Shown piece by piece: positions 6,868 through 32,115 of a stretch of DNA of 45,190 nucleotides (position 1 is its first letter; each line of letters opens with the position of its first letter). Source of the DNA: Candidatus Methylomirabilia bacterium (lineage in GTDB: Bacteria > Methylomirabilota > Methylomirabilia > Rokubacteriales > CSP1-6); contig JBGPZD010000003.1 of the NCBI GenBank assembly GCA_041493605.1, positions 1 through 45,190 of the forward strand. The letters run 5' to 3'. The translations under genes and the position numbers were made by a program. Under the pieces are notes generated by a model. That model worked only from the letters and a program-made list of their open reading frames with translations. It did not search any database and had not been told where the DNA came from.

Positions 6868-7747
6868 TCCGCGCGCTGCCGGGGCTCGAGCAGCCCCAGC
6901 ACTCCCGAGCTATCCAGACGGCCGAGCCCGGCTTCCCGGGCTCGGCCGTATAGTTTCCAGGCCTCCCGCCCCACCGCCGGTTCAGCGCCGGCCTGCTCCG
7001 CGAGCTCCAGGCCAAGCCCCAGATCCTTCCACGCCAGATCCACGAAGAACCCGGCCCGGTAGTCGCGGGCGACCAGCGCCGTCAGCTTGCGCTCCAGGAT
7101 GAAGCTCGCCCCCGAGCTCTTGCCGATCACCTCGCCCACGATCTGCCGCGGGATCTCCAGCCGGTCGGCCAGCGCCAGGGCCTCGCACAGCACGGCCTGG
7201 TTGGACAGGGCGACGTAGTTGTTGAGCAGCTTGAGGATGTTCCCCTTCCCCACTTCGCCCAGATAGAAGAGGTTGCGGCCGATGGCGCGGAAGACGCTCT
7301 CGTAGGGCGCCACGGCCTCGGCCGGGGCCCCGATCCCACCGCGAGCGTCCCGGCCCGCGCCCCGGCCACGCTGCCGCTGACGGGGGCATCGATCAGGCCG
7401 ACGCCGTGCGTGCGGCAGCGGGCCGCCAGCGCCCGGGTCGTTTCCGGCCCGACGGTCGAGAGATCGAAGATGACGTCACCCGCCTGGGTGCCGGCCATGA
7501 GGCCCGGGACCCGGTCCCGGCCGAACAGCGCGGCCTCCACCGCACGGTGTTCGGGCAGGCTCAGCAGGGTGACCCTCACGGCCCGGGCCAGCGCGGGCAG
7601 GTCGGGCGCCCGCGTGCCGCCCAGCTGCTCGAGCGGCGCGGTGGCCTCGGGCTTGAGGTCGTAGACGGTGAGCTGGTGGCCGGCCTTCAGGATGTTCTCG
7701 GCCATGGGGCTGCCCATGTTCCCGGTGCCGACGAAGCCGACGTGCAT
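6864..7747 (-). pseudogene. NAD(P)-dependent beta-hydroxyacid dehydrogenase (3-hydroxyisobutyrate/2-hydroxy-3-oxopropionate reductase family) split by a 1-nt frameshift
   Basis: The N-terminal frame (GFVGTGNMG...DAPVSGS..GTLAV) switches near 7337 to the C-terminal frame (IGAPAEAV...KLLNN...KDLGLGL). This could be a sequencing error. Confidence 0.8.
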
Positions 7748-7776
7748 GGCGTCTCCTTCTTGACGGTGGGGGATCT

Positions 7777-8307
7777 CTACGGTGCAGGGCGCCGAGGTGG
7801 TGACCCGAGGCGGCCGAGCGCCCGCGCGGCCGCGCGGGCCTTCTTGCTGAGCCGGCGCGGGTTGCCCTTCTTGGGCCCGCGCGGGAGGTCCGCGTCCTCG
7901 TCCTTGTCGGGCACGCCGGCGGCCGCGGGCGGCGCCGCGCGCGCCCGGGCGATCCGGGCCAGGAAGTCGTCGGTGGTGACCACGATGGCGCCGCCGCGCG
8001 CGGCGGCGGTGCGCACCTCGCGGTCATTGGATACCACGGCCCCGCCCCCAGCCGCGAGCCGAGCGAGCACCCGGTCGGCGCTCTCGCGTGCGCTGGAGAA
8101 AAGAACCCTCACGCCGGATCCGCCCGCGGCCGCGCCGCCGCCGCCCGATCCGTCGAAGACCACGGTGAACTCGTCCCCGCTCGACCGTGCCACGTTCGCG
8201 AGCAGCCGGCGTAGCGCCTGCCGTCCCGCTTCGAGGCTCACTCGCTCCTCCGCGAGAAGCTCCGGGGAGCGCCGGATGACGTTGTAACCGTCCACGAGCC
8301 ACCGCAT
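7777..8307 (-). CDS. NYN/YacP-like PIN-domain ribonuclease
   Basis: Motifs LVDGYNVI, VVFDG, SADRVL and VSNDREV. Confidence 0.85.
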   Translation of the reverse strand: MRWLVDGYNVIRRSPELLAEERVSLEAGRQALRRLLANVARSSGDEFTVVFDGSGGGGAAAGGSGVRVLFSSARESADRVLARLAAGGGAVVSNDREVRTAAARGGAIVVTTDDFLARIARARAAPPAAAGVPDKDEDADLPRGPKKGNPRRLSKKARAAARALGRLGSPPRRPAP

Positions 8308-8358
8308 GACGGCATCATAACGCGGTGCAATGCCCCGAAAATTGTCGGAACCCTCGAC

Positions 8359-8405
8359 CCACTAAATAAAGTTTGACTTTGCCGGACAGGCCCAATATGT
8401 TGTGG
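8359..8405 (+). promoter_or_regulatory. tandem NrdR boxes overlapping the sigma70 promoter of nrdJ
   Basis: ccaCtAaATaAaGttt (8359-74) and gccCaAtATgTtGtgg (8390-8405) match acaCwAtATaTwGtg and start 31 bp apart. Promoter: TTGACT(8373)-17 bp-TATGTT(8396). Confidence 0.75.
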
Positions 8406-8522
8406 CATCGTTTCCCTTCTGCCCACCCGCACGGGGCTGTGGGTGGCTGGGCGGGGCGGCGAGAGACCCGAAGTCGGAGCTCCCTACCGTCAGGTATCGG
8501 CTGTGCGAGCCAGGAGGCAGGC

Positions 8523-11500
8523 ATGAGGATCACCCGGCGCTTCACCAGGGAAGGCCAGAGCCCCTACGCGGGGATCGACTTCGATCAGCGCGTATCGGAG
8601 ATCAAGAACCCCGACGGCTCCACGGTCTTCCGCCAGGAGGGAATCCTGGTGCCCGCGGCCTGGTCGACGGTCGCCACGGACATCCTGGCCCAGAAGTACT
8701 TCCGCAAGTCCGGGGTGCCCCAACTCGACCCGGACGGGAAGCCCCTTCAGGACAAGGAGGGGCGCCCCGTGCTGGGTGGCGAGCGGGACGCCCGGCAGGT
8801 CTTCCACCGGCTGGCGGGGTGCTGGACCCACTGGGGGCAGAACTACGGCTACTTCGACACCCCGATCGATGCCCGCGCCTTCTATGACGAGCTCTCTCAC
8901 ATGCTGGCCACCCAGGTGGCCGCACCCAACTCCCCCCAGTGGTTCAATACGGGGCTGCACTACGCCTACGGGCTCACCGGGCCGGCCCAGGGACACTATT
9001 ATGTCGACCCCGACACGGGGGTGCTGACCCGCGCCACCTCGGCCTACGAGCGGCCCCAGCCCCACGCCTGCCAGCCCTACCACGCCTTGGTTTCCACGCC
9101 CCAAGGTCCAATTCGGATCGGCGACATCGTCACGGGCGGCCTGGTGGGCCTCGAGGTCTTCGACGGTCGCGATCGGGGGGCGGGGAGCACCCGCGTCGTC
9201 GCGGTCAAGGCGAACGGCGAGAAGGCCGTGTTCAGGGTCGAACTGAAGAACGGGATCTGCATTGAGGCCACCGGCGACCATCTGGTTTACGCCCTGCCCG
9301 CCCGCCGGGTGCCGGGTGCCTGGCGAAGGGTCGACGAGCTGACCCCTCGCATGCGTCTTCAACTCGCGACCCGAACCCATGTCGGCAAGCTCTCGGACGA
9401 CCTGTCCGCATGCGAGGCCGCGCTGGCCGGCTGGCTCCAAGGCGATGGCTTCGTGGGCCAGTACAGCCACGGGACGAACCGCAGCCTGACCCTCGAGTTC
9501 ATGACGATCGACAAGGACGAGTTCAGCTTCGTCCTGGAGCGGATCGAGCGCGTACTCCCAAGCGCGCACTATCACGTGCGCCACGTGGAGGCGCGCACCC
9601 CTGACCTCGACATCCGGCGAATCCGCCTGTACGGCGAGCGGCTGCGGCCCTTCGTAGAGCGGTACGGGCTCCTGCGCGAAGGTGAGGAACTCAAGGTCCC
9701 GGCTGCGATCATGACCGCCGGGCGTGAGGCCCAGGCCGCCTACCTCCAGGCACTCTTCCAGGCTGATGGCACGGTGCGGCGCCGGGGGGACCGTTCCTCC
9801 CGAACAGCCGACATCGTCCTCACCACCGTCTCCCCTTCACTCGCCCGCGGCGTCCAAGCCCTGCTCCTGAACCTCGGCATCTACTCCCGCATCGTCCTCG
9901 GGGTGGAGACTCGGGAGAACCGTCGGACGCCCTACTTCGTCTCGATCGGCTACGCCGAGTCGCGTGCCCGCTTCCGGGAACTGATCGACTTCGTGTCAGA
10001 GGACAAGAGGGCGAAGCTTGACGACGCTTGCTCCCAGCGCTTTCCGGGCAAGCGACTGCCGGGACTGCGCGAGGAGACCATCGTCAGCGTCGAGGCAGTC
10101 GGCGTCCAGCCCGTCTACGACATCCAGACCGAGAGCGGCCAGTACCTCTCCAACAACGTGGTGGTGCACAACTGCTTCATCCAGTCCGTCAGCGACGACC
10201 TCGTCAACGACGGCGGGATCATGGATCTCTGGACCCGCGAGGCCCGCATCTTCAAGTACGGCTCGGGCACCGGCTCCAACTTCTCCGCCCTGCGCGGCGA
10301 GGACGAGCCGCTCTCGGGCGGCGGCAAGTCCTCCGGCCTCATGTCCTTCCTCAAGATCGGCGACCGGGCGGCCGGGGCCATCAAGTCGGGCGGCACCACC
10401 CGGCGGGCGGCCAAGATGGTCTGCCTCGATCTGGATCACCCGGACGTGATGGAATTCATCCGCTGGAAGGTGGTCGAGGAGCAGAAGGTCGCCTCGCTCG
10501 TGGCCGGCTCGCGGCTGGGCAAGCGCCGGCTCCAGGCGGTGCTCCAGGCCGCAGGGACCGCGGCCGGCCTCGAGGCCGACCCCAAGAAGAACCCGGCGCT
10601 TCGGTCCGCCATGCGGGAAGCGCGGGCGGCCCTGGTGCCCGAGGCCTATATCCAGAAGGTGCTCCAGCTGGCCGCCCAGGGCGTGACCGAGCTGTCCTTC
10701 CCCGAGTACGACACCGATTGGGACAGCGAGGCCTACCTCACCGTCTCGGGCCAGAACTCCAACAACAGCGTCCGCGTGCCCAACAGCTTCATCGACGCGC
10801 TCGAGAAGGGCGGCGAGTGGACGCTCCGCCGCCGGACCGACGGCGCGCCGGCGAAGAAGATCCCGGCCGCCCAGATCTGGGACGAGATCGCCTACGCGGC
10901 CTGGGCCTGCGCCGACCCCGGCCTGCAGTACGACACGACGATCAACGAGTGGCACACCTGCCCCGAGGACGGGCGCATCAACGCCAGCAACCCGTGCTCG
11001 GAATACATGTTCCTCGACGACACGGCCTGCAACCTGGCCTCCGTGAACCTGGTCAAGTTCCTGCGTCCGGACGGCAGTTTCGACATCGAAGGCTTCCGTC
11101 ACGCCTGCCGGCTGTGGACGGTGGTGCTCGAGATCAGCGTGCTGATGGCGTCCTACCCGAGCCCGACCATCGCGCAGAAGAGCTGGGACTACCGCACCCT
11201 GGGCCTGGGCTACGCCAATATGGGCACCGTGATCATGCGCAAGGGCATCCCGTACGATTCGCCGGAGGCGGTCGCCATCTGCGGCGCGCTCACGGCCATC
11301 ATGCACGGCGAGGCCTACGCGACCTCGGCCGAGATGGCGCGGGACCTGGGGCCCTTCCTCGGCTTCCAGCGCAACCGCGGCCACATGCTGCGCGTGATGC
11401 GCAACCACCGGCGGGCGGCCTACGACGCGCGGCCCGGGGAGTACGAGGGCCTGACCATCGCGCCGCTCGGGATCGACCCGGCCCACTGCCCGGCGCCCCT

Positions 11501-13741: not shown

Positions 13742-14044
13742 GTGCATCTGACACCCAGAGAGCAAGAGAAGCTGATGATCTTCACCGCGGCGGAGGTCGC
13801 CAGGCGGCGCCGCGCGCGGGACCTGAAGCTCAACTACCCCGAGGCCATGGCGATCATCACGGCCGACATCTTAGAGGGGGCGCGGGACGGAAAGTCGGTG
13901 TCCGTCCTGATGCAGGCCGGGACCAAGATCCTGACGCGCGCGGACGTGATGGAGGGTGTCCCGGAGATGATCGAGGAGGTCCAGGTGGAGGCGACGTTCC
14001 CGGACGGGACCAAGCTGGTGACCGTCCATAACCCCATCCGATAG
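13742..14044 (+). CDS. ureA: urease subunit gamma
   Basis: [11 protein letters not shown]...LNYPEA...[18 protein letters not shown]. Confidence 0.97.
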
Positions 14045-14054
14045 GGAGGGCTCG

Positions 14055-14429
14055 GTGATACCGGGGGAGATCTTTCCGGCGGCTTCCGACATCGTGGCCA
14101 ACGCGGGCCGCCGGACCGTCCAGCTCATGGTGGCCAACACAGGCGATCGGCCGGTGCAGATCGGCGCGCACTACCATTTCTTTGAGGTGAACAAGGCCCT
14201 CCGCTTCGATCGGGAGAAGGCCTTCGGGATGCGTCTGAACATTCCTTCGGGCACCACCATGCGCTTCGAGCCGGGGGACGAGCGCACCGTGACCCTGGTG
14301 GAGATCCTGGGCAAGAAGATCATGCGCGGGCTGAACGCCCTGACCGACGGTGACATGGCCTCTCCCGAGGTCCGCAAGCGGGCGTTGGCACAGGCCCGGG
14401 CCCGCGGCTTCAAAGGAGCGGGGGAATGA
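14055..14429 (+). CDS. ureB: urease subunit beta
   Basis: [29 protein letters not shown]. Confidence 0.97.
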
Positions 14430-16144
14430 GCCTCAAAATCGACCGCAAGAGCTACGCGGCGATGTTCGGCCCCACGGTCGGGGACCGCGTGCGCCTCGCC
14501 GATACCGACCTGATCATCGAGGTGGAGAAGGATTACGCGGTCTACGGCGAGGAGACGCGCTACGGGCCGGGGAAGGTGCTGCGCGACGGGCTGGGCCAGG
14601 CCCCCGACGCCACCTGGGAGGGCGGCGCCCTCGACCTGGTGATCTCCAACGTCATCATCCTGGACCACTGGGGGATCGTCAAGGCGGACATCGGGATCCG
14701 TGACGGTAAGATCGCCGGCATCGGCAAGGCCGGCAACCCGAACATCATGGAGGGAGTCACGCCCGGCATGGTGGTGGGCGCCGCCACCGAGGCCCTGGCC
14801 GGCGAGGGAATGATCGCCACGGCGGGCGGGATCGATTCCCACGTCCACTACATCTGCCCGCAGCAGGTCACCGAGGCCTTCGGCTCCGGCATCACCACCA
14901 TGATCGGGGGCGGCACCGGCCCGGCCACTGGCACCAACGCCACCACCTGCACCCCGGGCCCCTGGAACATCCACCGGATGTTGGAGGCGGCCGAAGAGTA
15001 CCCGATGAACTTCGGCTTCCAGGGCAAGGGGAACTCCTCCCTGCCGCAGGGGCTGCGGGAGCAGGCCGAGGCCGGCGCCATGGGGTTCAAGCTCCACGAG
15101 GACTGGGGGACCACCCCCGCCGCCATCGACTGCTGCCTGCGGGTGGCCGACGAGTACGACGTGCAGGTGACGATCCACACGGACACGCTGAACGAGACCG
15201 GCTTCGTGGAGGACACCATTGCCGCCATCGCCGGACGGAGCATTCATGCCTACCACGTGGAGGGCGCCGGCGGCGGCCACGCCCCCGACATCATCAAGAT
15301 CGTCTCTTACCCGAACGTCCTCACCTCCTCCACCAACCCGACCAGGCCGTACACCGTCAACACCGTGGAGGAGCACCTGGACATGCTGATGGTGTGCCAC
15401 CACCTGTCGCCCAAGATCCCCGAGGACATCGCCCAGGCCGAGGCCCGCATCCGCCCCGAGACCATCGCCGCCGAGGACATCCTCCACGACCTGGGCGCCA
15501 TAAGCATGATCGGGTCGGACTCGCAGGCCATGGGACGCGTCAGCGAGACCATCATCCGCACCTGGCAGACGGCCGACAAGATGAAGCGGCAGCGGGGCCG
15601 CCTCCCAGAGGAGCGGGGCGACAACGACAACGTGCGGGTCAAGCGCTACGTCGCCAAGTACACCGTCAACGTGGCCATCGCCCACGGGTTCGCGGAGCAT
15701 ATCGGCTCCCTGGAGGTGGGCAAGCTGGCCGACATCGTCCTCTTTAAGCCGAAGTTCTTCGGGGTGAAGCCCGACATGGTCATCAAGGGCGGGTTCATCA
15801 CCTATATGGCCATGGGCGATCCTGGCTCCACGATTCCAACCCCGCAGCCCGTCATCGGCCGCTATATGTGGGGCGGGATGGGCCGCGCCAAGCAGTCTGT
15901 CTCCATCTCCTTTGTCTCCCAGGCGGCTTACCAGGCCGGCGTCCACAAAAAGCTGGGGCTGCAGAAGCGGGTGATCCCCGTGCGCAACTGCCGCGCCCTG
16001 GGCAAGAAGGACATGATCCACAACACGGCCCTCCCCAAGGTGGACGTGGACCCAGAAACCTACGAGGTCTACGCGGACGGCCAGCTGATCACCTGCGAGC
16101 CGGCCAGCGTGCTGCCCTTGGCCCAGCGGTATTTCCTCTTCTAG
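14426..16144 (+). CDS. ureC: urease subunit alpha
   Basis: All Ni ligands are present ([39 protein letters not shown]), as are the flap MVCHHL and terminal PLAQRYFLF. Confidence 0.98.
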
Positions 16145-16162
16145 CGCGGGGCATCCTAACGC

Positions 16163-16705
16163 ATGATCGTCGTCGAAGCAGTCCTGGGCAACCTCGGCGA
16201 GGACGCGCGCCTTCGGGACCTGCACCGGCGCTGGCAGGCGGAGGGGTGCGCGGAGACCGTGGCCTTGACACCCCTGGACGCCCAGAAGGGCCGGCTCCGC
16301 ATCCAGACCGACAAGGGGACGCCCCTCGGGCTGAGCCTCGGGCGGGGCGCCTCCTTGCGGGACGGCGACGTCCTCTACCTGGACGAGGCGCAGCGGCGGA
16401 TCATCGTGGCGCGGCTCACGCCGGAGGAGGTGCTGGTGATCACCGTGCAGCCGGCCGTCTCCGCCGAGGAGCTCCTCCGCGTCGCCGTCCGGCTCGGCCA
16501 CGTTCTGGGGAACCAGCACTGGCCCGTGAAGGTCGAAGGCCTGTCGGTGTACGTCCCGGTCTCCGTGGACAAGCAGGTGATGCAAACGGTTCTGAAGACC
16601 TATGGCCTGCAGGGGATCACGTACCGCTTCGAGGAGGCGAGCGTGGGGGCCATCCCGCGGACCGTCCCGCACGACCACCCGCACCCCGATGGGCATCATC
16701 ACTGA
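16163..16705 (+). CDS. ureE: urease accessory Ni chaperone
   Basis: LRDGDVL, GHVLGNQHWP and a His-rich C-terminal tail. Confidence 0.9.
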   Translation: MIVVEAVLGNLGEDARLRDLHRRWQAEGCAETVALTPLDAQKGRLRIQTDKGTPLGLSLGRGASLRDGDVLYLDEAQRRIIVARLTPEEVLVITVQPAVSAEELLRVAVRLGHVLGNQHWPVKVEGLSVYVPVSVDKQVMQTVLKTYGLQGITYRFEEASVGAIPRTVPHDHPHPDGHHH

Positions 16706-17432
16706 GCCCGACCCCGTGCCCGGGGCCGCGGGGCCATCAGCCAGCGCCCCCGGCGCGGCGTTCCTGAGCGCCCTGCAGTTGTCCGACACGTTCTTCCCTA
16801 CCGGCCTGTACACGCTGTCCTACGGGTTCGAGGCGTTCGTCCAGGCGGGGCTGGCCTCCAAGGCCAACCTGGAGGCGCTGCTCCGGGACTACCTGGAGCA
16901 CGTCCTCGGGCCCTCCGACGGCGTGGCCCTCTCCCAGGCCCATTGCGCCGTCGAGGCGCAGGATTTAGCGCGCCTCCTGGAGATCGACCGCCGCCTCGGC
17001 GCCCTGAAGCTGGTCCGGGAGGCCCGCGAGGCCTCGCGGCGCGTCGGCCGGCGGATCCTGGCCACAGCGGTCACGCTCACCTCCCACCAGCTGCTGGCGG
17101 ACTACCGGGCCGCCGCGGACGGGGCGACTACCCCGGGCAACGCGGCGGTGGCCCTCGGCTCAGTGGCGGCTGCCCTTCGCATCCCGCGGCGGGAGGCCCT
17201 GCTGATCGAGCTCCACACCTTCACCACGAGCCTGCTCGGGGCCGCCATGCGCCTTATCCGGCTCGACCACGAAGAGGCCCAGGTTATCCTTGGCCGCGTG
17301 AAGCCCCTGATGCTGCGTGTGGCCGAGGAGAACATGGACCGGAGTGCGTCGGAGATGCGCGCCTTCGCTCCCCTCATCGACATCATGGCCATGGGGCACG
17401 AGCGGGCCTCCGTCCGCTTGTTCATCAGCTGA
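16689..17432 (+). CDS. ureF: urease accessory protein
   Basis: [20 protein letters not shown] and terminal [11 protein letters not shown]. Confidence 0.92.
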
Positions 17433-17443
17433 GGAGGACGCCC

Positions 17444-18085
17444 ATGGCGAAACGCATCCCACGCATCGGAATCGGCGGCCCGGTGGGCTCGGGGAAGACG
17501 GCCCTCATCGAGTGCCTCGTCCCCCGCTTGATGGCTGACGGATACAAGGTCATCGTGGTGACCAACGACATCGTCACGGTGGAGGACGCGCTCCACGTGA
17601 AGCGAGCCCTCGCCGGAATCCTGGAGCCGGAACGGATCCTGGGCGTCGAGACAGGGGCCTGCCCCCACACCGCCGTCCGCGAGGACCCGACCATGAACCT
17701 GGCCTTCGTCGAAGAGATGGAGACCCGCTTCCCGGATTCGGACCTCTTGTTCCTGGAGAGTGGAGGGGACAACCTCACCCTCACCTTCAGCCCGGCCCTG
17801 GTGGACTATTTCATCTACGTCATCGACGTGGCGGCCGGGGACAAGATCCCCCGCAAGAACGGACCAGGTATCACCCAATCCGACCTCCTGGTAATCAACA
17901 AGGTGGACCTCGCGCCCCACGTCGGGGCCAGCCTGGAGGTCATGGCGCGGGATTCCCAGAAAATGCGAGGCGCCAAGCCGTTCCTGTTCACCAACTGTAT
18001 GACGCGCGTCGGTATCGACGAGGTGGTGATCCTCATCAAGCGCGAGGTCCTGTTCGAGGAGGTGGAGCGGCAGGCTCAGGAGTAG
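17444..18085 (+). CDS. ureG: urease accessory GTPase
   Basis: [23 protein letters not shown] and NKVDLAP; GAGGAGG SD before ATG 17444. Confidence 0.96.
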
Positions 18086-18091
18086 CGCCCG

Positions 18092-18937
18092 GTGGGCATG
18101 GAGGGGGTGCTCAGGCTGGAATTCGCCTCCCGGGACGGCGTCACGGCGATCGCGGACCGGTACCAAGAGGCCCCGCTCCAGGTGCAGAAGGTTCTCTATC
18201 CGCACGCGGCCTTCCCCGGCATGGCCTGGGTGTACGTCCTTACCGTGACCGGCGGGATCGTCCAGGGGGACCGGCTCCAGACCGAGATCATCGCCCGGGA
18301 CGAGGCCCAAGTTCACGTGACCACCCCGGCCGCCACGAAGATCTACCGCTCGCCGGCAGCGCCCGCCTCGCACCGTCTGCACATTCAGGCCGCTGCGGGG
18401 AGCTACGTCGAATACCTCCCGGGGCCGGTGATCCCCTTTCGCGGCTCCCGCTTCCTGGAGGAAGTGACCTTGGTGGCCCATCCGAGGGCAACGTTGGTGT
18501 ACGGCAGTATCCTGAGCCCCGGCCGCGTGGCCATGGGCGAAGCCCACGCCTACGATCTCTACGCCTCGCGCGTCACGGCACAGCGGCCCGACGGCAGGCT
18601 GGAATTCCTGGACGTCACGCACCTGGCGCCGGCCACCATGAGCTCCACGCACCCCGGGCTGCTCGGCCGCTTCGATGCGCTGGGGACGCTCCACGTGTGG
18701 ACCGGCAGCATTCCCCCGCGCGATCTCAGCGACCTGCTGCATCGCGTCCTCCAGGACTCGGAAGACCTCCTCGGCGGCACCAGCGAACTCCCGTCCGGGC
18801 GGGGGGTCACCGTGAGAATGGTCGGGCCGCGAGTGGAGATTGTGGCCGCCGCCCTTGCGGCGGTCGTCGCCACGGCGCGGGCAGCCATCCTGGGAGTGGC
18901 CGGGTCGGCGAGCAGGGCGCCGGTAATCCCTGACTGA
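18092..18937 (+). CDS. ureD: urease accessory protein UreD/UreH
   Basis: GGIVQGD, TTPAATKIY and EYLPGPVIPF; last gene of the operon. Confidence 0.92.
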   Translation: MGMEGVLRLEFASRDGVTAIADRYQEAPLQVQKVLYPHAAFPGMAWVYVLTVTGGIVQGDRLQTEIIARDEAQVHVTTPAATKIYRSPAAPASHRLHIQAAAGSYVEYLPGPVIPFRGSRFLEEVTLVAHPRATLVYGSILSPGRVAMGEAHAYDLYASRVTAQRPDGRLEFLDVTHLAPATMSSTHPGLLGRFDALGTLHVWTGSIPPRDLSDLLHRVLQDSEDLLGGTSELPSGRGVTVRMVGPRVEIVAAALAAVVATARAAILGVAGSASRAPVIPD

Positions 18938-23799: not shown

Positions 23800-23843
23800 C
23801 TCCCCAATCTCGGTTGGACCACACCAACACCCTGGAGGACCCC

Positions 23844-25241
23844 ATGAAACCCTCCACGTACACCGTGCCGATCGAGCTCGAGACGAGCGGCGTCCTCCTC
23901 CTGTACAACGCCCGCAGCGGGGCGCTCCTCGAGTTTCCGATGTCACGCCGGCCGGCCGTCGACGCCCTCCTCGCCCGGCCACCGGCCGGTGCGCCCGCGC
24001 CGGGCGGCGAGGCGGATCCACTGCTCGCTCAGCTCTCGAACCACGGCTTCCTCATCCCGGACGAGCTCGACGAACTTGCCCACCTGGAGGCTCAGTACAA
24101 GCGCGCGCGGGAGAGCCGCGGCCAATTCTCGCTCACGATCGCTCCCACGGTGAACTGCAACTTTCGCTGCACCTACTGCTATCAGGAGCATCCCAATACC
24201 AAGATGAGCGTCCCGGTGCAGGACGCCCTCGTCGAGCGGGTCCGGAAGGAGGCAGGCGAGGGAAAGCAGATCTCGGTGACGTGGTTCGGGGGGGAACCGC
24301 TGCTCGCTCTGGATGTGATCGAATCCCTCACTCGGCGGTTCCTGGAGGTCGCCGCAGCGGCCCGGGTCGAATACTCCGCCTGGATGATTACGAATGCTTC
24401 GCTGCTGACGCGCAAGGTCGCCGAGACGCTGAAGGAGCTGCGGGTCAACAAGGTCCAGGTTACGCTCGACGGGCCGCCCGAGGTCCACGATGCCCGCCGC
24501 TTCAAGGTCGGCAAAAAGCCGACCTTCGACACCATCGTCGGGAATCTTCGGGACGTATGCGATCTCCTGGAGATCTCGCTCCGCATCAACTGCGACGCGA
24601 CCAACGGCCACCGTGTCCTGGAGCTGCTCGACATCCTGGAGGCGGAGGGACTCAAGGGACGGGTCAACCCCTACCTCGCCCATGTGCAGGCGTACACCGA
24701 GGTCTGTGCCGACGTGGCCACCACCTGCATGAGCGGTCCGGAGTTCAGCCGCTTCGAGGCCGAGACGTACCTGGAAATATACCGAAAAGGGTGGGGCGTG
24801 TCGGTCAGGCCCCAGCCGCGGACGAGCGTCTGCATCGCCGATAAGGCCAATGGCTCGGTCGTCGACCCGACGGGGCGGATCTACAAGTGCTGGAACGACA
24901 TGACGCGCCCCAAGGAGGCGGTGGATCACCTCCAGCTCATCCCCACCATCGAGATGAAGAAGAACCGTCAGAAGTGGGACGCGTGGACGCCGTTCACGCT
25001 CCCCGAGTGCCGGTCGTGCAAGATGCTGCCGGTCTGCCTCGGAGGCTGCGCCTTCGATGCCATGAAGGTTCCCAACCCGACTCACGGCGACTGCACCCAT
25101 TGGAAATGGAACATCAAGGAAGTGCTCGCCCTGAACTACCTCCAAGGCGAGCAGCAGGACTTCCAGACGGCCCTGGAGGAGGCCCTCATGACCCATCAGT
25201 GGCAGGCCCCGGCAGCCGTCCCCGAACCCGCGACCGCGTGA
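23844..25241 (+). CDS. radical SAM/SPASM peptide/protein maturase with N-terminal RRE-like region
   Basis: CNFRCTYC, WFGGEPLL and QVTLDG. SPASM Cys pattern C..YKCW...CRSCKMLPVCLGGC...C. N-terminal 'LLYNARSGA...LSNHGFLI'. Confidence 0.92.
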   Translation: MKPSTYTVPIELETSGVLLLYNARSGALLEFPMSRRPAVDALLARPPAGAPAPGGEADPLLAQLSNHGFLIPDELDELAHLEAQYKRARESRGQFSLTIAPTVNCNFRCTYCYQEHPNTKMSVPVQDALVERVRKEAGEGKQISVTWFGGEPLLALDVIESLTRRFLEVAAAARVEYSAWMITNASLLTRKVAETLKELRVNKVQVTLDGPPEVHDARRFKVGKKPTFDTIVGNLRDVCDLLEISLRINCDATNGHRVLELLDILEAEGLKGRVNPYLAHVQAYTEVCADVATTCMSGPEFSRFEAETYLEIYRKGWGVSVRPQPRTSVCIADKANGSVVDPTGRIYKCWNDMTRPKEAVDHLQLIPTIEMKKNRQKWDAWTPFTLPECRSCKMLPVCLGGCAFDAMKVPNPTHGDCTHWKWNIKEVLALNYLQGEQQDFQTALEEALMTHQWQAPAAVPEPATA

Positions 25242-25255
25242 GTGGGAGAGCCACC

Positions 25256-26131
25256 ATGGAACGCGACGACGTCACAGCGATCATCGAGGCGGTAAGGGTC
25301 CGACTGAGCGGCTTCGACCACATCACCCGGCGCGAGGTATTGAAGGCGCTTCTAAAGAACAGCGCGTTCCTGGCCCTGCTGGCCGGTGGGGGCGCAGGAA
25401 TCCTCGAGCCGTCGCCGGCCGGCGCCCAGCAGCGAACATCCGTCTCAGCAGCAGCCCTCAGAGCCGCGCCGCCCGATCGCGCGTTTGACCGGCAGCGTAC
25501 CGTGTTCACCGAGGGGATGCAGGCCTGGTTGGACCAGATGATTCAGGACATCCTACTGCAGTTAGGCGATATCACCACCGGCAAGAGGGTTGATCCACGC
25601 ACCGGGCGAAGCGAAGGCTATTGCGGGAAAGACACCTGCGAAAGCGATGGGTGCGCGAGTGACACATGTGGCGACAACGCCTGTGGTAAGGACAGCTGCA
25701 ACGAGAACGGCTGTGCATCAGATGGGTGTGCTGACACCAACACATGCGGCAAGCAGGGGTGCTATGATCGGAACGTGTGTGCCGACCGTAACACCTGTAC
25801 CGAGCAGAATTGTGGCACCTTCGTCTGTCCTTCCAATACGTCGGTCGGAGGTTGGCTGAGCCCACGGGAGTTCCTCCAGCGGTATCAGAAGGAGCCGTTC
25901 GTCCGAGAGCTGACGGAGCTGTTCGGCCGGAACGTCGAGAGGGAGCTGCAAAACATGATCGTGAGGGGGACGACCCTGCGCAGCCGTGGGCTGGTCGGTA
26001 CTGGGGCCCCCCCGCCACTCCCCGCGCGCTCTTTCGGCGACATTCTGCGCGACCTGCCGGGCGAGCGGCTACGGCGCACCCCGCCGACGGGTCCGCCGCC
26101 GGCCGCCCCAAAGCCGCGGACGCCACAATAG
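25256..26131 (+). CDS. Tat-signal, Cys-ladder protein; putative rSAM substrate (291 aa)
   Basis: TRREVLK, an h-region and PAGA|Q cleavage site; 14 Cys spaced every 5-6 residues; GGAG SD before ATG 25256. Confidence 0.8.
   Translation: MERDDVTAIIEAVRVRLSGFDHITRREVLKALLKNSAFLALLAGGGAGILEPSPAGAQQRTSVSAAALRAAPPDRAFDRQRTVFTEGMQAWLDQMIQDILLQLGDITTGKRVDPRTGRSEGYCGKDTCESDGCASDTCGDNACGKDSCNENGCASDGCADTNTCGKQGCYDRNVCADRNTCTEQNCGTFVCPSNTSVGGWLSPREFLQRYQKEPFVRELTELFGRNVERELQNMIVRGTTLRSRGLVGTGAPPPLPARSFGDILRDLPGERLRRTPPTGPPPAAPKPRTPQ
25622..25828 (+). repeat. degenerate 15/18-nt repeats encoding C-x4/5 units
   Basis: CGKDT CESDG CASDT CGDNA CGKDS CNENG CASDG CADTNT CGKQG CYDRNV CADRNT CTEQN CGTFV C. Confidence 0.85.
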
Positions 26132-26134
26132 CCC

Positions 26135-27463
26135 GTGAGAGGCCTGCGGCGTCCCATCGGCTGGCTCGCGGTCGCGCTCTGCCTCGGGGCCACGCCGGCC
26201 GGGGCGCAGACGCCCTCGCTCGAGGACACCCCCGCGGGCCAGGCGTTCAAGGCGCGGCAGTACGAGGCGGCGCTCGTGGAGTTCCAGAAGCTCGCCGCAG
26301 CGAATCCCGGCGACGGGCTCGTCCAACGTTACCTCGCGCTGACGCTCGACCGGCTCGGCCGCTATCGCGAGGCCATCGAAGCCTTCCAACGGGCGCTCGC
26401 GTTGGCTCCCGACAACACCGCCACCCACTTTCACCTGGGTGCGACCTATTACAAGGCTGGGGCGCCGGACCTGGCCGACGCGAGCCTCCGCCGCGCGCTC
26501 CGGCTAGGGCCCGACACGCTGTACGCCGGGCTGGCCCGGCGGTATCTGGACGCGATCGCCCAGCAGCGGCTCCAGCTGCAGCGAGCGGGCGCACCGCCGC
26601 CGGTCGGCTTCTCGCTCACCGTGGGCGTGCAGCAGGACTCCAATATCCCGGCGGCCCCGGCCGACCGCTCCCTGTTCGACGGCCCCCGCGCTGGGCTGCG
26701 CGTGTTCGAGCAGCTCGCCGTGGAGTACCGGTTCCTGCGGACACCAGGTTGGTTTGGCTCCTTCGACGCGTCCTCCTACCAATCCGAGTACCCGGGCGGG
26801 GGGTTCCAGCCGTTCCAGCTCTCGACCTATGGCGTGGGCGGCACGCTCCAGCGGACGACCGCGCTCGGAGGCCTCCCGGTGACCGGCTCGCTGCGCTACG
26901 AACACATCTGGGCGCTGCTCGACGGCGACCAGTTCAGCCGCTCGCACGTCGTCACCCTGGCCAGTCAGGTCGGCCTCACGGCGAACACCACAACCCACCT
27001 CTACTACCGCTACGCGAGGGACGACTTCGAAGAGAGGGGGTTCCAGCCCGATCTCTCCTCGCGCGACGGAAACGCCCACACGTTCGGCCTGGCCCAGATC
27101 TGGTACTTCGCCGGCCGCCGCGGGCTGCTGCGGCTCGGGTACGAGTTCCAGCACAACGACACCGAGGGTCGCAACTTCGATATGGACGGTCACAAGGTGA
27201 GCCTCGGGGCGGCCATCCCGCTGTGGTGGGGGATCCAGGCCGATCTCGGGGTTGCGTATGCCCACGAGCGCTATCCCGACTTTCAGGGCGTCTTCGGCAA
27301 GCGAGAGACCGACCGCTGGACCGCCGAGGCGGGACTGAGCCGGTGGCTCAGCCGCCACCTGCGCCTGAACCTGAACTACGCGTACATTGACGAGGACTCC
27401 AACTACGCCATCCTGTCCTACCGGCGCTGGGTCACGGGGGTGAGTCTCACCTATGTATACTAG
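26135..27463 (+). CDS. TPR + outer-membrane beta-barrel protein, Slam/DUF560 (type XI secretion)-like
   Basis: Sec signal (PAGA|Q) and TPRs (YREAIEAFQRALALAP, FHLGATYY). The 'DSNI' barrel start is followed by amphipathic strands and a terminal GVSLTYVY beta-signal. Confidence 0.72.
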   Translation: MRGLRRPIGWLAVALCLGATPAGAQTPSLEDTPAGQAFKARQYEAALVEFQKLAAANPGDGLVQRYLALTLDRLGRYREAIEAFQRALALAPDNTATHFHLGATYYKAGAPDLADASLRRALRLGPDTLYAGLARRYLDAIAQQRLQLQRAGAPPPVGFSLTVGVQQDSNIPAAPADRSLFDGPRAGLRVFEQLAVEYRFLRTPGWFGSFDASSYQSEYPGGGFQPFQLSTYGVGGTLQRTTALGGLPVTGSLRYEHIWALLDGDQFSRSHVVTLASQVGLTANTTTHLYYRYARDDFEERGFQPDLSSRDGNAHTFGLAQIWYFAGRRGLLRLGYEFQHNDTEGRNFDMDGHKVSLGAAIPLWWGIQADLGVAYAHERYPDFQGVFGKRETDRWTAEAGLSRWLSRHLRLNLNYAYIDEDSNYAILSYRRWVTGVSLTYVY

Positions 27464-30548: not shown

Positions 30549-30944
30549 TTACTTCTGCTGCTCCAGCTGTGCCCCGTGCTTCATCAGGACCTCGCCCATC
30601 GCCTTCATCATTTCGCCGCGCATCTTGAGCATGCGGGCCGACGCCTTGGGATCCTCTGAGCTCATCATCATCTCCATCATCCCGGGCATCATCATGGCCC
30701 GCCCCTGCATGCCGTCCATCATTCCCTGCCCGGGCATTGCCATGCCCGGGCCCATCATCGGGCACATCATCTTCCCACCCATCATGCTTTGACCCATCGG
30801 GTGATGCTGCGGTTCCCCCGCGGGGGGTGGGCCGGCCGGCGGCTGGCCCTGGGGCGGCGGCATCGGCCGCATCTGGGCCCCCGCCGCGGAAGCGCACAGC
30901 AGCACAGCCAGAACCGCTACAGCCGTCACGGTCTCGCGAATCAT
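30549..30944 (-). CDS. secreted Met-rich protein
   Basis: Signal peptide AAGA|Q; about 29 Met in 131 aa; GGAGG SD. Confidence 0.75.
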   Translation of the reverse strand: MIRETVTAVAVLAVLLCASAAGAQMRPMPPPQGQPPAGPPPAGEPQHHPMGQSMMGGKMMCPMMGPGMAMPGQGMMDGMQGRAMMMPGMMEMMMSSEDPKASARMLKMRGEMMKAMGEVLMKHGAQLEQQK

Positions 30945-31071: not shown

Positions 31072-32115
31072 ATGAACGAACGGCGGCGGGGCTTTCTACG
31101 GATTTGCGGGCTGGGGAGCCTAGGGGTCGTGGCCGGCCCGGCGCTGGCCTGGGCCACCAGGATCCGGGTGCTGGAGGAAGGGGGAGACGGTGACCGGCCC
31201 ATCCTGGTCGGCCAGGTGAGCCCCGACTTCCAGCGCATGGCCTCGGGGCTGCGCGTCGGGCCTGCTCAGGCCGCGGGCGGACTGCTCGTGTTCTGGCTCC
31301 GCGCCAAGGAAGCGCCGGCCGCGCTCGAGGTCGCCACGCTCGAGGAGGCGCGCGCCCGGGGCCAGCTCCTCATCACCGAGCGCGACCAGGCCACCGTGCC
31401 CGAGCTGCTCGTCGAGAACCGGGGCAAGACGCCGGTGCTTCTCCTGGCGGGCGAGATCCTGCTCGGCGGCAAGCAGAACCGCGTGCTCAAAGAGGACATC
31501 CTGCTGCCGCCGCTCAGCGGCCCGCGCAATATCGGCGTCTACTGCGTGGAGCAGGGACGCTGGAACGAGGGCAGGAAGGACTTCGAGAGCAAGGCCAGCT
31601 TCGCCCAGCCGGCGCTGCGCTCGCGCCTCATGGATAAGGCGCCGCAGAGCCAGGTCTGGTCGGAGGTGGGCAAGGCCGCGCGGGCGGCCCAGGCGCCGTC
31701 GGCCACGGGCAGCTACCAGGAGATCTACGAGAAGCCCGAGGTCAAGGACCATCTCGCGGACGTCGAGCGCGGGCTGGACTCTCGGGCGGCGGCGGGCGCT
31801 TACGGCGCGGCCGTCTTCACCGCCGGCGGCTTGAGCGGCGTCGACGTGTTTCACGCGCCCGGACTCTTCGCGCGCGAGTGGTCGAAACTCCTGCGGGCGC
31901 ATGCCGTCGAAGCCTACCGCCAGCCGCGTCCCGCCGAGTGGCCGGAGGCCAAGCTCCGGGCGCGGGTGGAGGCCATGTTGGGCGTGGCGGCGCGCGCCGA
32001 GGGCAACCTGCGGGGCAACGCGGGAGTGGGACAGCTCTTCGAGTTCCGCGTGGAGAAGGCGCGCGGGGCGGCGCTCATCTTCGAAGGGCGTGTCGTGCAC
32101 GCGGCCATCCTCTGA
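31072..32115 (+). CDS. Tat-signal ARPP-1/DUF6569-like protein
   Basis: RRRGFL Tat motif; VPEL.VEN, GEILLGGKQNR, CVEQGRW and QSQVW. Confidence 0.75.
   Translation: MNERRRGFLRICGLGSLGVVAGPALAWATRIRVLEEGGDGDRPILVGQVSPDFQRMASGLRVGPAQAAGGLLVFWLRAKEAPAALEVATLEEARARGQLLITERDQATVPELLVENRGKTPVLLLAGEILLGGKQNRVLKEDILLPPLSGPRNIGVYCVEQGRWNEGRKDFESKASFAQPALRSRLMDKAPQSQVWSEVGKAARAAQAPSATGSYQEIYEKPEVKDHLADVERGLDSRAAAGAYGAAVFTAGGLSGVDVFHAPGLFAREWSKLLRAHAVEAYRQPRPAEWPEAKLRARVEAMLGVAARAEGNLRGNAGVGQLFEFRVEKARGAALIFEGRVVHAAIL

Follow-up and report, generated by a model that had tools for sequence, protein, structure and literature searches.

A ladder of 14 cysteines beside a radical SAM/SPASM enzyme in a Candidatus Methylomirabilia bacterium: a candidate thioether-crosslinked protein with a Tat-like signal

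What might a ladder of 14 regularly spaced cysteines (Cys) be for, when it lies in the middle of a protein with an export-type signal and the gene directly follows that of a radical S-adenosylmethionine (SAM) enzyme? The question is raised by a stretch of 45,190 nucleotides from Candidatus Methylomirabilia bacterium (assembly GCA_041493605.1, contig JBGPZD010000003.1, positions 1 to 45,190 of the forward strand), the whole of which is referred to here as the window. Four genes on its + strand form a cassette encoding, in order, a radical SAM/SPASM enzyme, the Cys-ladder protein (designated P0001), an outer-membrane protein composed of a TPR domain and a 14-strand barrel, and a small proline-rich secreted protein (Table 1). 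The reading favoured here, with rather more confidence than doubt and by analogy with characterised systems, is that the ladder is the core of a Crp/Cef-type protein which would be thioether-crosslinked by the neighbouring enzyme. The system looks like a bacterial, export-linked cousin of the CrpA/CrpC pair of Methanococcus voltae, although its scores place it outside every curated family.

Translation of the P0001 gene gave exactly 14 Cys, all within the ladder, at successive spacings of 5, 5, 5, 5, 5, 5, 5, 6, 5, 6, 6, 5 and 5 residues. The residue two positions before Cys 2-13 (position -2) is, in order, D, D, D, N, D, N, D, N, Q, N, N and Q, the exceptions being Cys1 (G) and Cys14 (F). Read as 13 loops, the ladder consists of nine C-x-x-[D/N/Q]-x-C, three C-x-D-x-N-x-C and a final C-G-T-F-V-C. 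Twelve loops with D, N or Q at -2 were obtained in none of 20000 within-loop shuffles and none of 20000 whole-ladder shuffles, and the hypergeometric probability of 12 out of 12 is 4e-8. The GC content of the ladder is 0.575, compared to 0.642 before and 0.696 after it, and GC at third codon positions is 0.667, compared to 0.76 before and 0.81 after it. No DNA repeat was found within the ladder by Tandem Repeats Finder at a minimum score of 30, and the periodicity is therefore kept at the protein level. Both the spacing and register described in the initial annotation, and its statement that the ladder is lower in GC and conserved as protein, were thus borne out.

Relatives of P0001 are few: four were identified among 5.8 billion clustered proteins and 15 representative clusters among 1.84 billion proteins, and a further relative (P0020) was read from locus L003, described below. 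Eleven close relatives (P0002-P0011 and P0020, 39-93% identity) have five parts in common, namely a segment preceding a pair of arginines (RR), an invariant RR within T-R-R-E-V-L-K with a Gly-rich hydrophobic stretch and an A-x-A site behind it, the N-flank motif I-S-x-x-A-L-T-A-P-A-P-D-R-x-F, a C-flank (consensus F-L-D-R-Y-x-x-E-P-F-V-R-E-L ... T-T-L-R-G-R-G-L) and a Pro-rich tail, usually of about 100 residues. Five distant members (P0013-P0017, 199-271 amino acids) keep the RR near the N-terminus, the Cys region and the C-flank, and have no long n-region. No short ladder relatives (query residues 117-197, proteins of 30-159 amino acids) were found at E<=0.01.

The register was counted over loops of 3-6 residues in 14 members, leaving out P0001, its 93% identical ortholog P0002 and P0004. 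Position -2 was N or Q in 83 of the 167 loops and D, N, Q, E or H in 126, and neither count was reached in 5000 shuffles for each residue set. Across members, four-residue loops read G-[D/E]-[Q/N]-x and five-residue loops x-G-T-N-x, and the position of the acid or amide is therefore fixed relative to the downstream Cys. Repeat-number variation, for which the initial annotation had proposed a homolog search, was seen: whole loops have been gained and lost, and the Cys region between the flanks has 53 to 148 residues among relatives. Between P0001 and P0002, 12 of the 21 differences are inside the ladder, and the three substitutions at -2 (D126E, D156N and Q167D) are all within D/E/N/Q. The ladder is the least conserved part of the protein (mean pairwise identity 0.21, compared to 0.55 for the signal and 0.53 for the C-flank), a pattern like that of peptides which are made by ribosomes and modified after translation (RiPPs). 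A 657-base contig from a sediment metagenome (run X12) has nine differences from the window, eight of which are inside the ladder (25633-25717).

The best NCBIfam matches of the radical SAM/SPASM enzyme are all maturases of Cys-rich peptides: TIGR04463 (312.3 bits, cut-off 525), TIGR04334 (Clo7bot; 305.6, cut-off 600), geopeptide maturase (216, cut-off 400), FlmE/OhkG (202, cut-off 500), CefB (NF038107; 185.7, cut-off 600), PapB (NF047865; 115.8, cut-off 340) and QhpD (TIGR03906; 88.1, cut-off 453). SCIFF maturase (TIGR03974) scored 67.9 bits (cut-off 425). TIGR04463 scored 316.9 bits on the ortholog at locus L002 and 330.2 bits on that at L003, also below 525, and was the best or second-best match in all three enzymes. 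The CxxxCxxC cysteines (C115, C119 and C122) and the SPASM cysteines (298, 340, 359, 399, 402, 408, 412 and 427) are invariant across 30 homologs, and the seven-Cys set C340, 359, 399, 402, 408, 412 and 427 matches the pattern given for CrpC (PMC13692751). The nearest solved chain is the ranthisynthase CteB (5wgg; E 6e-12 with a single sequence, 1.6e-32 with a profile). About 95 N-terminal residues precede the CxxxCxxC core; this part aligns to the TIGR04463 profile from position 43 in the window enzyme and from position 9 in L002 and L003, and to chain 8vpo from its residue 10. The listed start of the enzyme is a TTG, but all 11 close orthologs begin with M-K-P-S-T-Y-T, at the Met ten residues further in, which makes 23844 the probable start.

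It is unlikely, in our estimation, that the enzyme modifies the ladder by other chemistry, yielding a sactionine (sulfur to alpha-carbon) or another Cys change rather than a ranthionine. Such chemistry would accord with scores under the cut-off of every characterised family, and with the residues at six catalytic proximity positions (taken from PMC10288494 and mapped by hand, with reference residues for CteB and StsB only). These are Y123, F158, I192, T217, W360 and N361 in the window enzyme, compared to F, F, T, S, H and Q in CteB and Y, T, I, S, K and L in the sactisynthase StsB, a mixture which does not separate the two types. The preference at -2 across members is, however, what would be expected of side-chain rather than alpha-carbon chemistry, and the nearest tested relative, CrpC, gave ranthionine-type behaviour in mass spectrometry (MS) (PMC13692751). 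The proposal in the initial annotation that D, N and Q are ranthionine or sactionine acceptors is supported by analogy with the C-X-X-Q/D motif of the CrpC substrate, which, viewed from the opposite end, corresponds to the [D/N/Q]-x-C register.

The enzyme gene lies directly upstream of the Cys-protein gene at all three loci with gene context (the window, L002 and L003); the initial annotation had held that homologs occurring mostly without such a neighbour would speak against its proposal, and at these loci the neighbour was always present. Eleven ortholog clusters of the enzyme were found at 66-97% identity, followed by a drop to <=47%, and these match the 11 close relatives of the Cys protein, which argues for linkage of the two genes. 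Both proteins (the enzyme at E<=1e-50) occur in the same two of 251 genomes of the window's phylum, G000 and G247, and neither was found in 158 other genomes of the window's family. Among 401 genomes sampled from the phylum to which L003 belongs, one had the Cys protein. Two weak matches in G019 (E 2e-7 and 2.5e-6, with 3-4 internal stop codons) were treated as spurious, and the single locus of a metagenome scan (L004) was dropped as a chance E-P-F-V-R-E-L word in an unrelated protein. The GC content of the enzyme and Cys-protein genes, the first two of the cassette, is 0.59-0.69, compared to 0.70-0.78 in the DNA on either side; this, together with the patchy distribution, suggests that the cassette spread horizontally.

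AlphaFold2 (18-row alignment) left the ladder unfolded at a per-residue model confidence (pLDDT) of 30-35 and predicted its flanks as confident helices (residues 60-105, pLDDT 75-89; residues 200-250, pLDDT 86-94), as had been described from the sequence along with the Pro-rich tail, which is present. Invariant residues of the C-flank in alignment A1 are Y210, F215, V216, E218, L219, F223, G224, M234, L241, R242, R244 and G245. The tail is short in P0001; in most relatives it has 89-122 residues and usually ends in P-x-P-I/L-Q/P. Pfam gave no match for P0001 or five distant relatives, a fold search of the model against 48161 PDB chains returned none at Z>=5 (only the N-terminal helix was aligned, which is uninformative), and there was no usable match in the ESM Atlas. 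A ferredoxin-like iron-sulfur or metallothionein-like ladder was set aside, as the C-x4-C spacing, odd Cys counts and variable length do not fit the usual cluster motifs.

A ladder that is an ordinary extracytoplasmic Cys-rich module, either a disulfide-braced narrow beta-solenoid or a metal-binding segment, with the enzyme acting elsewhere, is regarded as very unlikely. Alternation of C-x-[DE]-Q-x-C and C-x-G-T-N-x-C does give a period of 10-11 residues with Asn/Thr in the style of beta-helical repeats, and an exported protein can form disulfides. Insect antifreeze repeats may resemble this Asn/Thr period. In addition, the AlphaFold3 model of CrpA is a low-confidence beta-helix, and its authors suggest that CrpA may bind metals (PMC13692751). 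Against such a module stand the adjacency of the enzyme at three of three loci and the confinement of both genes to the same two of 251 genomes, the presence of no other plausible substrate in the cassette, the lack of any ladder fold in the AlphaFold2 model, and total Cys numbers that are odd in 8 of 16 members, which argues against all-disulfide pairing.

The N-terminus of P0001 bears on how the protein would be recognised and exported. A Shine-Dalgarno-like sequence lies 5 bases upstream of the ATG, and no other in-frame ATG, GTG or TTG was found before residue 29; the 23 residues before T-R-R are therefore considered real. They align in all 11 rows of A1, one row being five residues shorter, with a mean pairwise identity of 0.40, and the unusually long n-region remarked on in the initial annotation is thereby confirmed. 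R25 and R26 are invariant in the 11 rows, the A-x-A-type site is conserved, and the signal (residues 24-57) is the most conserved segment of the protein. The consensus of twin-arginine translocation (Tat) signals is [ST]-R-R-x-F-L-K, which T-R-R-E-V-L-K fits; the distant member P0013 has S-R-R-E-F-L-Q, and all five distant relatives have short n-regions with the RR a few residues from the N-terminus. TatC was detected in the genome of the window, G000 (208 bits). Tat export of P0001 is inferred at the level of the motif, and is supported by the consideration that a cytoplasmic iron-sulfur enzyme must act before export and that a crosslinked product would suit Tat.

The extended signal may double as a leader for a RiPP recognition element (RRE), as the initial annotation proposed, the evidence for this being its conservation (0.55 for residues 24-57, compared to 0.21 for the ladder). 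Prediction of a complex between the enzyme and residues 1-60 gave a score of 0.04 against a mark of 0.32, which is no evidence either way, and literature searches found no publication linking a Tat signal to a radical SAM-modified precursor. Residues 15-25 (25298-25330; R-L-S-G-[FL]-D-x-I-T-R-R) show a likeness, by eye, to S-G-L-D-L-T-I-R-A-R, which the supplement of PMC13692751 prints for the N-terminal leader domain in CrpA and relatives of it; the likeness is short and unscored, and could be chance or a shared recognition element.

On the favoured reading, the enzyme would take a side-chain hydrogen from the D, N or Q of each C-x-x-[D/N/Q]-x-C unit and bond that carbon to the sulfur of a neighbouring Cys, so that a series of as many as 12-13 small thioether (ranthionine) rings would arise. 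The pre-RR helix, T-R-R-E-V-L-K and the hydrophobic stretch, the two helical flanks, or both, may hold the protein on the enzyme. Since the enzyme is a cytoplasmic iron-sulfur protein and the product would be crosslinked, exit through the Tat pathway, which accepts folded proteins, is proposed, with cleavage after A-G-A(57); Tat and the general signal peptidase would then do the work that in ordinary RiPP clusters falls to a dedicated protease and an ABC exporter. In what is the weakest step, the TPR and 14-strand barrel protein may carry the protein, or its Pro-rich tail, across the outer membrane. The mature protein could, as a guess, be a crosslinked, protease-resistant, acid/amide-rich element of the envelope or surface, perhaps binding metal. 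A more elaborate version appears decidedly unlikely: the Tat signal with its pre-RR helix would be the leader bound by the N-terminal domain of the maturase, the enzyme would double as a Tat 'proofreading' chaperone until 12-13 rings are made, and the bead-chain product would be passed to a non-proteobacterial Slam-like barrel, with surface display by the Pro-rich tail.

Several observations weigh against this reading. The thioether chemistry rests on analogy, the enzyme is below every curated cut-off, and its TIGR04463 score (312/525) is about equal to that for TIGR04334 (306/600), the chemistry of which was not found described. The Cys protein has no significant similarity to any named family in NCBIfam or Pfam. 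In CrpA the Cys lies three residues before the acceptor (PMC13692751), whereas D/N/Q here is fixed to the downstream Cys in the longer loops. Gene context covers three loci only, with about 10 other homolog clusters unplaced. With regard to the barrel, the L002 and L003 orthologs gave no match to PF04575 at E<=0.001, which only the window barrel passes; barrels of this family are widespread in the phylum, with matches at E<=1e-10 in 108 of 251 genomes (one of them, in G034, is flagged unpublished); and G243 has a close barrel ortholog (52% identity) with neither the enzyme nor the Cys protein nearby. With regard to the signal, the Tat model TIGR01409 aligned over its full length (positions 1-29) to residues 23-57 at 12.5 bits (residues 1-60 as query) or 14.0 bits (residues 21-60), below the cut-off of 16.7; P0013 scored 14.9 bits, also below it, and the remaining four distant members had no match within the N-terminal stretch scanned.

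These Tat scores also favour a different view of the N-terminus, in which it begins with a cytoplasmic leader, after which comes either a Sec signal or a membrane anchor that is not cleaved off. The protein would then be threaded or tethered, and would not leave the cytoplasm in a folded state. Two Lys within the stretch after the RR, and the likeness of S-G-[LF]-D-x-I-T-R-R to a cytoplasmic leader of CrpA relatives, point the same way. This view is possible and yet doubtful, given that T-R-R-E-V-L-K fits the consensus, that the RR is invariant in all 11 rows and kept near the N-terminus in five of five distant members, that a Gly-rich, weakly hydrophobic stretch with an A-x-A site fits a cleaved Tat signal, and that a crosslinked product argues against Sec threading.

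The remaining members of the cassette were also characterised. The window barrel protein matched Pfam SlipAM (PF04575) at 34.3 bits (gathering cut-off 22) as well as TPR families, and its AlphaFold2 model (mean pLDDT 85.3) has 14 strands, with BcsC, OmpG, CymA and PelBC as the best solved matches in Foldseek; the L003 barrel scored 28.5 for TPR_Slam (cut-off 35.2). At locus L024 (G243:C6, 4991-8026) the 52% barrel ortholog adjoins a divergently transcribed gene for a 486-amino acid Sec-signal protein rich in Pro, Gly and Thr, and is followed by an SDR gene resembling the SDR 1.3 kb downstream of the window barrel gene. A 41% barrel paralog in G247 adjoins a 1163-amino acid protein with a Pro-rich end, and as a rule the barrel seems to be accompanied by Pro-rich secreted proteins. 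The end of the barrel gene overlaps with the gene for the 106-amino acid secreted protein, which had no family match in NCBIfam, Pfam or TIGR01409 scans; over 52 residues it shares 62% identity with the product of the same-position gene in L002.

All four genes recur in unchanged order in L002, from a Rokuibacteriota metagenome-assembled genome (MAG), and in L003, from a Thermodesulfovibrionia MAG, the enzyme and Cys-protein genes are adjacent. Upstream in L003 (1547-4470) are an ECF sigma factor, a zf-HC2 anti-sigma factor and an S8 subtilase with weak matches to QhpE (77 bits, compared to 165) and mycosin. Its TPR-barrel gene is 2.7 kb downstream, after a PIN-domain gene and genes for two Pro/Thr-rich secreted proteins (7268-9602). 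The gene scans of the three loci turned up no ABC exporter, and the only peptidase in them was the S8 subtilase upstream of the L003 enzyme. The genes flanking the window cassette (DAO oxidoreductase, ExoIII-type nuclease and SDR) are unrelated and partly on the other strand. Seven small contigs from two metatranscriptome runs, 95-99% alike, cover all four genes; one (25135-25380) spans the enzyme stop and the Cys-protein start and another (26027-26177) the Cys-protein stop and the barrel start. They are a weak hint of expression, coming from a related strain with DNA carry-over possible and no silent-stretch control.

Table 1. Features of the cassette and of the Cys-ladder protein in the window
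Feature	Position	Strand	Description
Radical SAM/SPASM maturase, 475 aa as listed	23814..25241	+	NCBIfam; Pfam Radical_SAM 65.4 bits
Shine-Dalgarno-like GGGAGAG	25244..25250	+	5 bases 5' of ATG, 2 bases past radical SAM stop codon
Cys-ladder protein P0001	25256..26131	+	Open reading frame, 291 aa plus stop, 876 bp
Pre-RR extension, residues 1-23	25256..25324	+	Helix in model (residues 2-18, low pLDDT 48-54)
Tat-like signal, residues 24-57	25325..25426	+	T-R-R-E-V-L-K, Gly-rich hydrophobic stretch, A-G-A before Q58
N-side flank, residues 58-116	25427..25603	+	Conserved I-S-x-x-A-L-T-A-P-A-P-D-R-x-F, two helices (pLDDT 87-89, residues 60-90)
14-Cys ladder, residues 123-191	25622..25828	+	Loop reading, shuffles, AlphaFold2 pLDDT 30-35
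C-side flank, residues 198-250	25847..26005	+	F-L-x-R-Y-x-x-E-P-F-V-R-E-L...M-I-x-x-x-T-T-L-R-x-R-G-L, helical, conserved; pLDDT 86-94
Pro-rich tail, residues 251-291	26006..26128	+	Short in P0001
Outer-membrane protein, 442 aa	26135..27463	+	Signal peptide, TPR (helices 33-149), 14-strand beta-barrel (157-441)
Small secreted Pro-rich protein, 106 aa	27453..27773	+	Overlaps barrel gene end by 11 bases

Elsewhere in the window, a urease gene cluster (13742-18937) was identified with Pfam, comprising UreC (14426-16144), UreE (16163-16705), UreF (16602-17432) and UreD (18092-18937); small open reading frames 5' of UreC are probably UreA/UreB. An extreme abundance of Met, Gly and Pro marks a 131-amino acid secreted protein (30549-30944, - strand), which contains, for instance, M-M-G-G-K-M-M and M-M-M-P-G-M-M-E-M-M-M and has no Pfam match; it recalls Met-rich periplasmic copper-binding stretches. 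An ARPP-1 domain protein (PF20208, 228 bits) with a Tat-like start is encoded at 31072-32115 (+ strand).

In the TIGR04463 family, it was with CrpA/CrpC, in September 2026, that enzymatic thioether stapling was first demonstrated for whole proteins as opposed to short peptides (PMC13692751). The cassette would be a natural variant in which an exit route is encoded as well, through the Tat-like signal, the pre-signal helix, a dedicated TPR-barrel and a small partner protein, and it raises the questions of whether such proteins are envelope or surface components, whether Tat is used since the product is crosslinked, and whether a signal peptide can serve as a recognition leader. The cassette also illustrates why such substrates escape genome mining: one RiPP curation dropped predicted precursors from genes >600 bp as false positives (PMC10288494), and the present gene has 876 bp. 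The family is very rare, which restricts its wider importance unless the Tat link turns up in other places as well.

Among known systems, the barrel is comparable to Slam/type 11 secretion (PF04575, DUF560), in which an N-terminal TPR and a 14-strand barrel are encoded beside a secreted protein (PMC8406197); these systems were described from Proteobacteria and their known cargo has a C-terminal eight-strand barrel. Here, in contrast, the C-terminal half of the neighbouring P0001 consists of helices and a Pro-rich tail, with no eight-strand barrel (TbpBBD) and no Pfam match, two of the three barrel orthologs miss PF04575, and the best solved matches include the polysaccharide channels BcsC and PelBC.

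Thioether formation of the proposed kind has precedents in freyrasin/PapB, NxxcA/NxxcB and SCIFF/CteB, in which SPASM enzymes join a Cys sulfur to the C-beta or C-gamma of a nearby Asp, Asn or Thr; according to PMC8326336, the bond is Cys-Asn at C-beta in NxxcA, freyrasin has six Cys-Asp C-beta bonds, six such rings in a row, and QhpD makes Cys-Asp/Glu bonds. Unlike P0001, the substrates freyrasin, NxxcA and SCIFF are short peptides without export signals. QhpC/QhpD is closer in that enzyme-made Cys-Asp/Glu thioethers occur in a protein which ends up in the periplasm (PMC8326336). It differs in that QhpD scored 88 of 453 bits and no dehydrogenase subunits were present among the neighbours scanned. 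QhpC uses a dedicated protease and an ABC exporter rather than Tat.

The likeness to 'Cys-every-fifth' (CefA/CefB) noted in the initial annotation is real and weak. Cys occurs at every fifth residue in both, and CefB is among the top five matches of the enzyme, but both scores are below cut-off (185.7/600 for CefB; 22.9/30 bits for CefA) and the signal, helical flanks and tail are absent from the CefA peptide. The CefA model (NF038108) matched residues 122-159 of P0001 and, at 27.4 bits, P0009, and gave no match in the other 12 members scanned. Literature searches on CefA/CefB 'Cys-every-fifth', and on OhkG/FlmE with radical SAM, found nothing relevant.

The closest parallel is with CrpA/CrpC of Methanococcus voltae, for which the statements that follow are drawn from PMC13692751 and its supplement. 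CrpC belongs to TIGR04463, has two SPASM clusters and a predicted RRE, and equips CrpA, a Cys-rich protein of 298 amino acids, with thioether crosslinks that show ranthionine-type behaviour in MS; P0001 is thus not, as the initial annotation had it, special in being far larger than 'Cys-every-fifth' RiPP precursors, and BLAST relatives of CrpA with TIGR04463 neighbours include the 173-amino acid CefA and LysM-fused proteins of about 600 amino acids. The C-terminal repeats of CrpA carry C-X-X-Q/D with the Cys preceding the acceptors, and in the sequence printed in the supplement their C-x-x-[Q/D]-x-C spacing equals that of the ladder; CrpA was compared by printed sequence only, and the likeness carries no alignment score. 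N-terminal truncations of CrpA lower its processing, and the product has no established function or transport route. There was no occurrence of Tat, or of words starting 'secret', in the text, nor of Rokub-, Nitrospir-, Methylomirabil- or Thermodesulfovibrio- in the two spreadsheet supplements.

Both systems combine a radical SAM/SPASM enzyme having an N-terminal domain with an adjoining Cys-rich protein of about 290-300 amino acids, and both Cys-rich proteins have C-x-x-[Q/D] at a Cys spacing of five residues, a leader-like conserved N-terminus free of Cys and a Cys region predicted with low confidence. They differ in their hosts, Rokuibacteriota and Nitrospirota here as opposed to Methanococcus voltae, and in the placing of the Cys region, which is mid-protein between conserved helices in P0001 and at the C-terminus of CrpA. 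Ring geometry may also differ, because D/N/Q in P0001 keeps its place relative to the downstream rather than the upstream Cys. In addition, a CrpB-like twin is absent from the present system. What appears to be new here, in comparison with CrpA/CrpC, is the combination of a Tat-like hydrophobic N-terminus preceded by a conserved 23-residue pre-RR helix, an embedded core in which Asn is a common candidate acceptor, a Pro-rich tail and a linked barrel.

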